DNA from: a virus
Virus genome (UHGV): UHGV-0278151
Direction: 5' to 3' (one strand)
Length of the DNA stretch: 20,723 nt
A program made the position numbers and the translations under genes. The notes beneath the pieces were generated by a model, which was given only the letters and a program-made list of their open reading frames with translations, had not been told where the DNA came from and ran no database searches. Shown in pieces: positions 6,654 through 14,164 of this stretch. Position 1 is the stretch's first letter. The number at the start of each line of letters is the position of its first letter.

Positions 6654-7679
6654 TTACGCCAGTTGTACGGACACGAACGCATCAGGATCAGCCAGCAGCA
6701 TCAGCGGTGCTGACTGAATCATGGTGAACTCACGCGCCGGATCGCCGGTGGTCACCCAGTTTTTCGGGTAGCGGGCAGAGGCGTTAATACCTTCGCGCTG
6801 TGCGTCCGCATCCTGAATGCAGCCATAGGTGCGCAGACCGCGTGCCTGAGTGTTCCCCAGCACCATCGTGTTGTCCGGCAGGAAGTTCTTTTTGACGTCG
6901 TTTTCCACGTACTGTCCGGAATACACGACGATCGCCGTATCGCCATACATCCCCTTATAGGACACCGCTTCGCCCAGGTCTTTTACCGCTGTCTCCAGCT
7001 CGGAATGAGAGCCGCGACGGGTATCCAGCTTCTCCTTGACGGCTTTGAAGGAACGGAACAGCGCCCAGCCTTTCGGATCAAACACGATGATATTCACCAC
7101 GCCGCTGGCGTTCAGCGCATAGGCTTCGATATCGTCGGTCGGGTCATACGTGGACTTGTCACGCTTGCTCCACTCCGTACCACCGGACTGTGTGATGTTG
7201 TTCGCCGCACTGCGGCCCATATCCACCTCAACCGGATCGAAGGCTTCACCGGTCATGGTGTATTTGCCCTTAAGCACAGCAGAAACTGCCTGCATCTCTT
7301 CGACCTGAGCAATGGCCAGCTCTTCGTCTCGCATGTTCTGCATGATGATGCGACGGCGGCGGTAAGCCGGGTCCGCCAGATTCTGCGGATCTTCATCCGG
7401 CAGGCGACGCAGGGTCATCTGCGGATTCACCTCATGCTTGGGTTTGACATATCCCGGCGTAAATTCAGAGGTGGAGCCGCCACGGGAACGGATAACCTCA
7501 CCGGAAACAATCGGCGAAACGTACAGCGCCATGTTTACCAGTCCCGGAATTTGTGAGAGATAGACTTTCTCCGTGGTGAAGGGATAGCTCTCACGGAAAA
7601 AGAGACGCAGAAACAGCGGATCAAACTTAAATTTCTGCTCATTTGCCGCCAGCAGCTGGGCGGTTGTGTACATCGACAT
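6654..7679 (-). CDS. E: Major capsid protein E
   Basis: From Met10 of the ORF, MSMYTTAQLLAANEQKFKFDPLFLRLFFRESYPFTTEKVYLSQIPGLVNMALYVSPIVSGE... (341 aa) matches lambda gpE. Confidence 0.95.
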   Translation of the reverse strand: MSMYTTAQLLAANEQKFKFDPLFLRLFFRESYPFTTEKVYLSQIPGLVNMALYVSPIVSGEVIRSRGGSTSEFTPGYVKPKHEVNPQMTLRRLPDEDPQNLADPAYRRRRIIMQNMRDEELAIAQVEEMQAVSAVLKGKYTMTGEAFDPVEVDMGRSAANNITQSGGTEWSKRDKSTYDPTDDIEAYALNASGVVNIIVFDPKGWALFRSFKAVKEKLDTRRGSHSELETAVKDLGEAVSYKGMYGDTAIVVYSGQYVENDVKKNFLPDNTMVLGNTQARGLRTYGCIQDADAQREGINASARYPKNWVTTGDPAREFTMIQSAPLMLLADPDAFVSVQLA

Positions 7680-9396: not shown

Positions 9397-13077
<3,681 letters not shown>

Positions 13078-13103
<26 letters not shown>

Positions 13104-13623
13104 TCAGCAACCCCGGTATCAGTTCATCCAGCGCGGCTGCTTTGTTCATGGCTTTGATGATATCCCGTTTCAGGAAATCAATATGCCGGTTATCCAGCTC
13201 AGGAAAACGTCGCTGCACCGACAGAGGAATACCGTCGAGAATACTGGCAATTTCACCTGCGATCCGCGACAGCACGAAAGTACAGAATGCGGTTTCCACC
13301 ACTTCAGCGGAGTCTCTGGCATTTTTCAGCTCCTGGGCGTCAGCCTGCGCACGTGTAAGTCGATGGCGTTCGTACTCAATAGTCCCAGGCTGGAGATCTG
13401 CCTCGCTGGCCGCCCTGTAATCCTCAACCTCTTTACGGAGTTTTTCATTTTCGATATCAGCTTCCCTCTGCGCATACCACTGAATTGCCATGGCGGTATC
13501 AAATACAGATTCAACGCCCTTACCACCTCCGGAGACGCAAGGGAGTCCCTGAGACTGCCAGCGTTCAATCGTTCGCGGATCCACGTTGAAAATTTCGGCA
13601 AGTTTCTTTTTATTAACCTTCAT
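13078..13623 (-). CDS. Nu1: Terminase small subunit Nu1, chimeric (non-lambda N-terminal DNA-binding domain, lambda C-terminal part)
   Basis: [93 protein letters not shown]... (181 aa). The first 78 or so residues are only loosely lambda-like and recall phage 21 gp1. From ASEADLQPG onward it is essentially lambda Nu1. Confidence 0.9.
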
Positions 13624-13648
13624 GAAACAGTCACACAACAAATACAGA

Positions 13649-13760
13649 GTCCGACATGAAAGTGTCCGAAAATGACTTTTTCAGGCGTTTTCATGTCGGA
13701 CCTTTTACGGATTCGATATTAGAAAAAACAAATAGTTATGTTCGAGAAGTACCGACATGA
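13649..13760 (-). promoter_or_regulatory. cosB-like region: three CATGTCGG(A/T)C repeats, presumed small-terminase binding sites
   Basis: Plus strand has gtCCGACATGAa at 13649-13660, tTCATGTCGGacc at 13690-13702 (inverted) and gtaCCGACATGAt at 13749-13760. They lie between cosN and the Nu1 start, where lambda has R3-I1-R2-R1. The motif differs from the lambda CGTTTCC-type R sites. Confidence 0.7.
13726..13738 (+). promoter_or_regulatory. Possible IHF site (I1 analogue) between cosB repeats
   Basis: AAACAAATAGTTA follows an A-tract. It has one mismatch to WATCAANNNNTTR and sits between the outer and middle repeats, like lambda I1. Confidence 0.35.
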
Positions 13761-13799
13761 TTTTCCCCGGAAAATTTTCATAAATAGCGAAAACCCGCG

Positions 13800-13811
13800 C
13801 GCCTGCCGCCC
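13800..13811 (-). other. cosN cohesive-end 12-mer candidate (GGGCGGCAGGCG on the minus strand)
   Basis: The minus strand reads ACG GGGCGGCAGGCG CGCGGGTTTTCGCTATTTATGAAAATTTTCCGG. Both flanks are identical to the lambda left end as I remember it (ACG GGGCGGCGACCT CGCGGGTTTTCGCTATTTATGAAAATTTTCCGG). The 12-mer differs at 4 of its last 5 positions. Confidence 0.7.
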
Positions 13812-14164
13812 CGTGGAAGGCCTCCCCACCGGAAGGACCCACACAAATGAGAGCGTTTATCATTAACATTTGCAGATAAGATGACGTACATCATTGAAAC
13901 GCCATTCAGCCATATACCGGCAGCATTCGTAGTTGCACTCCGTAACTCTGCGACTAAGGTTAAAAACATGGCCCTCTTTTGCCACCGGCAAATCTTCAAT
14001 GGATTTCCCCTGCCGGTTTTTTATTTTCGTCGATGCATAACATTGCATTTACATCAATAGCGGCTATTGTCATTAGTATGTTGCATCAATGCATGGGTGG
14101 TATTGGCGGTCTTCGCCGGCCGCTTCTGTGTAGCTGCTCCCTGTGACCGGTTTTTTATTTCTCA

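Follow-up and report, generated by a model that had tools for sequence, protein, structure and literature searches.

The DNA analyzed here, referred to as the window, is a stretch of 20,723 nucleotides that is 100% identical to a prophage in E. coli EC21Z-048 (NZ_CP101269). The RefSeq annotation of this prophage spans int to J/lom, without a pseudogene among the packaging and head genes, and its sole pseudogene is the side tail-fibre gene at the prophage end. Judged by its sequence, the window is a near-complete, largely intact lambdoid prophage. A cos region organized like that of lambda, adjoined by terS and terL, was identified on the minus strand, with the following features:

13834..13840, minus strand: cosQ heptamer GGGTCCT, the packaging-termination signal, from alignment to lambda and 21 (cosQ annotated in OL657228)
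13798..13813, minus strand: cosN, 16 bp, CG + GGGCGGCAGGCG + CG, from sequence and alignment, with nick positions predicted
between 13812 and 13811: predicted top-strand nick, from the conserved elements
13800..13811, minus strand: predicted 12-nt 5' cohesive end GGGCGGCAGGCG, from sequence, the uniqueness of a 25-mer and the allele census
13805-13800, minus strand: variable right half, bp 7-12, CAGGCG, part of the predicted cohesive end
between 13800 and 13799: predicted bottom-strand nick, from the conserved elements
13763..13797, minus strand: cosN-R3 spacer (the I2 bend region in lambda), from alignment
13747..13762, minus strand: cosB R3 AATCATGTCGGTACTT, bp 50-65, a 21-type predicted small-terminase site transferred from OL657228
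13726..13738, minus strand: cosB I1 TAACTATTTGTTT, bp 74-86, a putative IHF-site homologue, by homology to 21 alone
13689..13704, minus strand: cosB R2 AAGGTCCGACATGAAA, in the opposite orientation to R3 and R1 and identical to the 21 R2 motif
13645..13661, minus strand: cosB R1 TTTCATGTCGGACTCTG, from alignment to the annotated 21 cos
13078..13623, minus strand (start 13623): terS, 181 aa, intact, RefSeq "terminase small subunit"
11178..13103, minus strand: terL, 641 aa, intact, with 98.9% full-length identity to lambda gpA

The cos region and the terminase genes

The minus strand reads ...GGGTCCTTCCGGTGGGGAGGCCTTCC-ACG-GGGCGGCAGGCG-CGCGGGTTTTCGCTATTTATGAAAATTTTCCGG..., with ACG at 13814-13812, the 12-mer at 13811-13800, and CGCGGG from 13799. 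The 25-mer GGGCGGCAGGCGCGCGGGTTTTCGC occurs as a single copy in the window (13787-13811, minus strand), where 0 copies are expected (100 shuffles, up to 3 mismatches). By BLAST, bp 1 of lambda (NC_001416/J02459) aligns to position 13811, and the ends of lambda and phage 21 (OL657228) are both GGGCGGCGACCT, which is also the lambda 12-mer that the preliminary description had given. Its statement that 4 changes fall in the last 5 bases of the 12-mer is borne out by the alignment of 13811-13800 to lambda cos, which shows substitutions at bp 8 (G>A), bp 9 (A>G), bp 10 (C>G), and bp 12 (T>G), with bp 7 and bp 11 the same. The accompanying statement that both flanks are conserved holds for the right side, where 34 bp (bp 13-46) are identical to lambda, and fails on the left, where only ACG and GGGTCCT match.

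The sequence elements that characterize a lambda-like cos were all identified around the variant 12-mer, namely the left half of cosN, the CG pair, the symmetry, cosQ, the cosB complex, and adjoining intact terS and terL genes. Bp 1-6 are GGGCGG, the invariant left half of lambda-like cosN, and the CG dinucleotide is kept at each predicted nick position (aCG|GGGCGGCAGGCG|CGcgg). Two-fold symmetry extends over 10 of the 16 bp of cosN, a count equal to that of lambda, with the symmetric pairs -2/14, -1/13, 2/11, 4/9, and 6/7, 3 of them inside the overhang; compared with lambda, the window lacks the 3/10 pair and has the 4/9 pair in addition. The cosN-R3 spacer matches lambda exactly up to bp 46 and shows neither insertions nor deletions against lambda or 21. 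R3 differs from phage 21 R3 at 1 base, and R3-I1-R2-R1 runs collinearly with the cos annotated in phage 21, the distance from R3 to cosN being unchanged.

The left flank has a different history. The 22-bp spacer between cosQ and ACG is of another lineage, similar to that of phage cdtI. Lambda and 21 have 1 bp more here, so that in the window cosQ, at -29..-23 counted from overhang bp 1, lies 1 bp nearer to the overhang. The shortened spacing was found in 118 of 124 left-flank-anchored sites of the cdtI-type flank family among the matches listed. As far as these sequences can tell, the cosQ-cosN distance tolerates a 1-bp difference, because the shorter spacing is common to the cdtI-type left-flank family. 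An inverted repeat, CCGGCA...(20 nt)...TGCCGG, follows an A-run upstream of cosQ (about 13985-14016, minus strand); it is also kept in phage cdtI (about 1322-1350 of locus L003) and is atypical as an intrinsic terminator.

An open reading frame of 73 aa (13778-13999, minus strand) runs across cos, and an equivalent frame in phage IdasGreatGrand (1332-1610 of locus L001) is annotated "hypothetical protein". We considered a coding explanation for the 12-mer and rejected it, given that RefSeq has no gene at this frame and that the pattern of conservation is that of a DNA site; the frame is probably a spurious call over that site.

Residues 1-45 of TerS, the DNA-binding domain, share 89% identity with phage 21 gp1 and 56% with lambda Nu1, and a stretch of 18 residues in the N-terminal recognition region is identical to phage 21. 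In the TerL-binding part (residues 91-181), TerS is 93-98% identical to lambda Nu1. The 21-type N-terminus is thus paired in the window with 21-type R3, R2, and R1 sites (CATGTCGG core), and this TerS-cosB pairing is predicted to be of the phage 21 packaging specificity type. TerS can be described as a natural 21/lambda chimera whose C-terminal half fits a lambda-type TerL, a design also used in laboratory lambda-21 hybrids. From the collinearity of cos, the match of the TerS chimera to the R sites, and a TerL 98.9% identical to that of lambda, the packaging apparatus therefore appears coherent and intact.

Natural variation at bp 7-12 and distribution of the CAGGCG allele

We scanned IMG/VR with the pattern ACGGGGCGG-N6-CGCGG and found many hexamers at true cos sites. 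The scan was repeated with the right flank alone and with the left flank alone, so that the 12-mer was not fixed by the search pattern; the resulting allele sample is pattern-selected, and its figures hold among the matches listed. Of 155 sites found through the right flank, 154 have GGGCGG at bp 1-6, as do 118 of 124 found through the left flank, and ACG and CGCGG were near-invariant across the flank-anchored sites, all among the matches listed. At bp 7-12, discrete alleles were found, including CGACCT, AAGGCG, GAGCGT, CAGCGG, GAGCGG, CAGGCG, and others, with at least 24 alleles in 203 distinct cos contexts, differing at 2-5 of the 6 positions. Among the 24 alleles listed, bp 7 and bp 11 are mostly C, and bp 12 is T (17) or G (7), never A and never C, the base that symmetry would predict. 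This limitation at bp 12 may reflect a weak constraint beside the bottom-strand nick.

The nearest relatives of the window are prophages of ETEC H10407, E24377A, and others (97% identity), which carry GGGCGGAAGGCG. The same 21-type cosB is found elsewhere with CGACCT (strain AR_0372, phage IdasGreatGrand) or GAGCGT (TW10690). The E24377A and TW10690 sites have near-identical flanks on both sides and the hexamers AAGGCG and GAGCGT, which differ at 4 of 6 positions, and the hexamer has therefore been exchanged independently of its immediate flanks. Of 5,426 complete E. coli genomes, 4,089 have the lambda allele with its right flank, at 7,394 sites in total and at most 8 in any one genome; lambda-type cos is therefore almost universal in E. 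coli.

Variation of this kind has been described before. Differences at bp 7-12 are common among lambda-like phages, including N15 and phiD326 (both at bp 9 and 12) and Gifsy-1 (bp 8, 9, and 11) (PMC4669245), and the N15 record confirms an end of GGGCGGCGTCCG. The ends of LLS and mEp213 were inferred to be GGGCGGCGCGCT (PMC12315714, 2025). Mutations at bp 7-12 have a minimal phenotype, whereas symmetric changes in the left half are severe (Xu & Feiss 1991, in PMC4669245); the asymmetry between the 2 halves depends on cosB (Hang et al. 2001, in PMC4669245), and lambda TerL uses the N15 cosN as well as its own (PMC4669245). Selection was placed on the left half, on cosQ, and on the CG dinucleotides at the nick positions, and not on bp 7-12 (PMC4669245), and the cosN survey of Vahanian et al. 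2017 (Virology 509:140) is cited by others for the same conservation pattern. The published tolerance data come from single substitutions and from the double change of N15, not from a four-base combination such as that of the window, in which bp 8, 9, and 10 are changed together. Given the papers of the Feiss laboratory, LLS/mEp213, and N15, the window allele is therefore a further, rare allele of an already described bp 7-12 polymorphism and is not new in kind. The CAGGCG allele itself was not found in the searchable literature, although the survey of Vahanian et al. 2017 may list it.

The preliminary description had proposed a search for the allele at other lambdoid cos sites. This search succeeded in E. 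coli genomes, IMG/VR, and metagenomes, and gave nothing among deposited phage records. Among 5,426 complete E. coli genomes, 8 carry the CAGGCG allele, searched as ACGGGGCGGCAGGCGCGCGGGTTTTCGCTA, at 9 sites in total, whereas the AAGGCG allele, about 18 times commoner, was present at 166 sites in 155 complete E. coli genomes. CAGGCG was also found on IMG/VR and gut-metagenome contigs. The carriers come from unrelated sources, having been isolated from humans in China, Korea, and Japan and from poultry in Korea and Denmark. Sequencing or assembly error, for which nothing speaks, is practically excluded as an explanation by independent assemblies with the identical 20-mer: 7 further complete genomes have it with the same left flank, and so do assemblies from IMG/VR and metagenomes.

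The exact CAGGCG allele was absent from 50,697 deposited phage records, the nearest of which, PhiR46_1 and YDC107_1, carry the one-base neighbour AAGGCG. A paper describing the PhiR phages was not found, and plaque formation by PhiR46_1 is deduced solely from its GenBank record. Searching 1 genome per species with the exact 20-mer returned 18 matches, all of them chance occurrences in GC-rich genomes without cos context. In metagenomes, the exact 20-mer gave 30 matches, mostly by chance, with only 3 contigs (L162, L181, and L185) representing cos sites. A search of lambda cos against plasmids matched nothing relevant.

Most CAGGCG carriers join the window-type left flank to a lambda-type cosB. 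The combination of CAGGCG with a 21-type cosB was found in the window and 1 gut-metagenome contig, and that with a third cosB type in 1 prophage, assigned to SE11. The left flanks of CAGGCG sites comprise 3 variants from 2 families, 1 of these variants being lambda-type. E. coli SE11 (NC_011415.1) has 2 CAGGCG sites. In IMG/VR, IMGVR_UViG_643348551_000006 and IMGVR_UViG_643348551_000008 both carry CAGGCG with the same left flank and differ in cosB type; IMG genome 643348551 is presumably E. coli SE11. The sharing of CAGGCG by co-resident prophages suggests exchange or homogenization of the cosQ-cosN segment between them. CAGGCG is an allele in circulation and presumably functional, neither the product of decay nor a one-off lesion, because it turns up repeatedly in mosaic contexts of several kinds whose terminase genes are intact.

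Predicted cutting of the site and compatibility of its ends

Taken together, the window probably holds the functional lambda-type cos of a largely intact lambdoid prophage, with 12-nt ends GGGCGGCAGGCG that represent 1 of many natural cosN alleles. TerS, with its 21-type DNA-binding domain, would bind the 21-type R3, R2, and R1 sites together with IHF, and, following the model in the literature, TerS at R3 and R2, spanning the IHF bend, would anchor the lambda-type TerL on cosN. The distance from R3 to cosN is reported to set the position of the nick (Higgins & Becker 1994), and in the window this distance would fix the nick in the bottom strand at the junction of bp 12 and 13 (13800/13799). 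The top strand would be nicked before bp 1 (13812/13811) by a second TerL that reads the left, conserved half, and virion DNA would carry 12-nt 5' ends GGGCGGCAGGCG in place of GGGCGGCGACCT. The usual nick positions are likely here, since neither the spacing between R3 and cosN nor the two CG dinucleotides nor bp 1-6 have changed. Bp 7-12 would not be closely read by TerL and would be free to vary because anchoring at cosB sets the bottom-strand nick. CAGGCG would then move between phages by recombination, mostly along with the left flank on the cosQ side.

In one alternative, the bp 7-12 alleles are not neutral and form selected compatibility classes, for instance through a lower viability of recombinant or heterologously terminated chromosomes whose ends do not match, and cosN would partly isolate lambdoid phages from one another. 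We consider this unlikely. The hexamers form discrete alleles with differences at 2-5 of 6 positions next to invariant bases, near-identical flanks carry different alleles (AAGGCG in E24377A and GAGCGT in TW10690), and 2 prophages in 1 genome share the rare CAGGCG despite different cosB types, all of which would fit such classes. Further, a 2-base mismatch costs about 4-fold in yield, and the predicted duplex between window and lambda ends keeps only 7 bp. Old neutral variants shuffled by recombination would give the same discrete, reassorted alleles; the published reading is one of relaxed constraint, not of selection (PMC4669245), and a mismatch lasts for a single generation. That bp 7-12 form a multi-allelic compatibility locus homogenized among co-resident prophages, with CAGGCG marking a partly isolated packaging lineage and the alleles maintained because chromosomes with ends from different alleles cyclize poorly, is correspondingly improbable.

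The preliminary description had inferred, provided that the nicking positions are kept, cohesive ends incompatible with those of lambda and 21, and hence a packaging or annealing barrier between otherwise recombining relatives. A real cos with a predicted end different from that of lambda and 21 was indeed identified, whereas "incompatible" overstates the difference, given that a 2-base mismatch is tolerated: with lambda and N15 ends, chromosomes cyclize with about 25% yield, and both alleles segregate after replication (PMC4669245). The cost to recombinants was deemed transient because the mismatch is gone after 1 replication (PMC4669245). Ends that do not match result only if packaging begins at one allele and finishes at a different one, as in first-generation recombinants and tandem prophages. 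Normal growth is unaffected by a variant allele, because both chromosome ends come from copies of the same cos. Between window and lambda ends there are 4 mismatches, and only the 7-bp GGGCGGC core pairs; a rough nearest-neighbour estimate gives -12 kcal/mol for this duplex, compared with -15 for lambda/N15 and -19 to -20 when the ends match. A stronger penalty for the four-base than for the 2-base mismatch would be plausible, so the proposed barrier is partly supported; any such barrier would be transient and is not expected in normal growth.

Several observations count against a functional site, namely the rarity of the allele, its absence from deposited phage records, the tail-fibre pseudogene, and the position of cosQ 1 bp closer. 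The preliminary description had offered, as its own alternative, a degenerate cosN in a defective prophage that is no longer cut or packaged at this site. The presence of CAGGCG in only 8 of 5,426 genomes, the lack of a sequenced virion genome that carries it, and the truncated tail-fibre gene at the prophage end are what such decay might leave. All the changes lie in the tolerant half (bp 7-12), while the constrained elements (cosQ, CG/CG, GGGCGG, R3 spacing, terS, and terL) are intact, and decay would not yield 1 hexamer in 3 cosB backgrounds and unrelated strains. With the allele at 9 sites in 8 genomes, 3 cosB types, and intact terminase genes, an unpackageable site is very unlikely.

The other way in which the predicted ends might be wrong is a functional site with shifted nicks, giving an overhang of another length or register than the 12-mer. 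Lambda TerL can mis-nick once its anchoring is disturbed (PMC4669245), which is not direct evidence for this site, and cosQ lies 1 bp closer than in lambda. The distance from R3 to cosN, identical to that of 21 and lambda, and the CG dinucleotides kept at both nick positions make such a shift highly improbable.

For the reading that we prefer, a functional site with a natural allele, the predicted sticky end GGGCGGCAGGCG matters to annotators and phage engineers; lambda cos oligonucleotides and end-specific tools would therefore not fit, although the practical value is small. The site adds a data point to the published picture in which terminase reads only the cosB-distal half of cosN. Whether such alleles are neutral or act as weak recombination barriers is a wider question that has already been raised in the literature and goes beyond a single site.

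Comparison with known cos sites

The window resembles lambda and 21 in the architecture of cos and in the cosN-cosB spacing, with bp 1-6, the flanking CGs, and bp 13-46 those of lambda and the R sites of the 21 type. It differs from both at bp 8, 9, 10, and 12, in a foreign cosQ-cosN spacer that is 1 bp shorter, and in its chimeric TerS. Like N15, phiD326, Gifsy-1, and mEp213/LLS, it has changes confined to bp 7-12 and keeps bp 1-6, the CGs, and cosQ; unlike N15, phiD326, and Gifsy-1, which have 2 or 3 changes from lambda, its hexamer CAGGCG has 4. Phage cdtI, whose record starts GGGCGGGAGCGT, has a left flank of the window's family (GGGTCCTTCCGGTGGGG...CCACG) and the same cosQ spacing; its hexamer is another, and its right flank, cosB, and terminase are unrelated. 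The ETEC allele GGGCGGAAGGCG (H10407 and E24377A; PhiR46_1 and YDC107_1) is 1 base away from the window allele, with A in place of C at bp 7. The ETEC prophages carrying it share the 21-type cosB and the left-flank family of the window, and their left flank differs at 2 bases.
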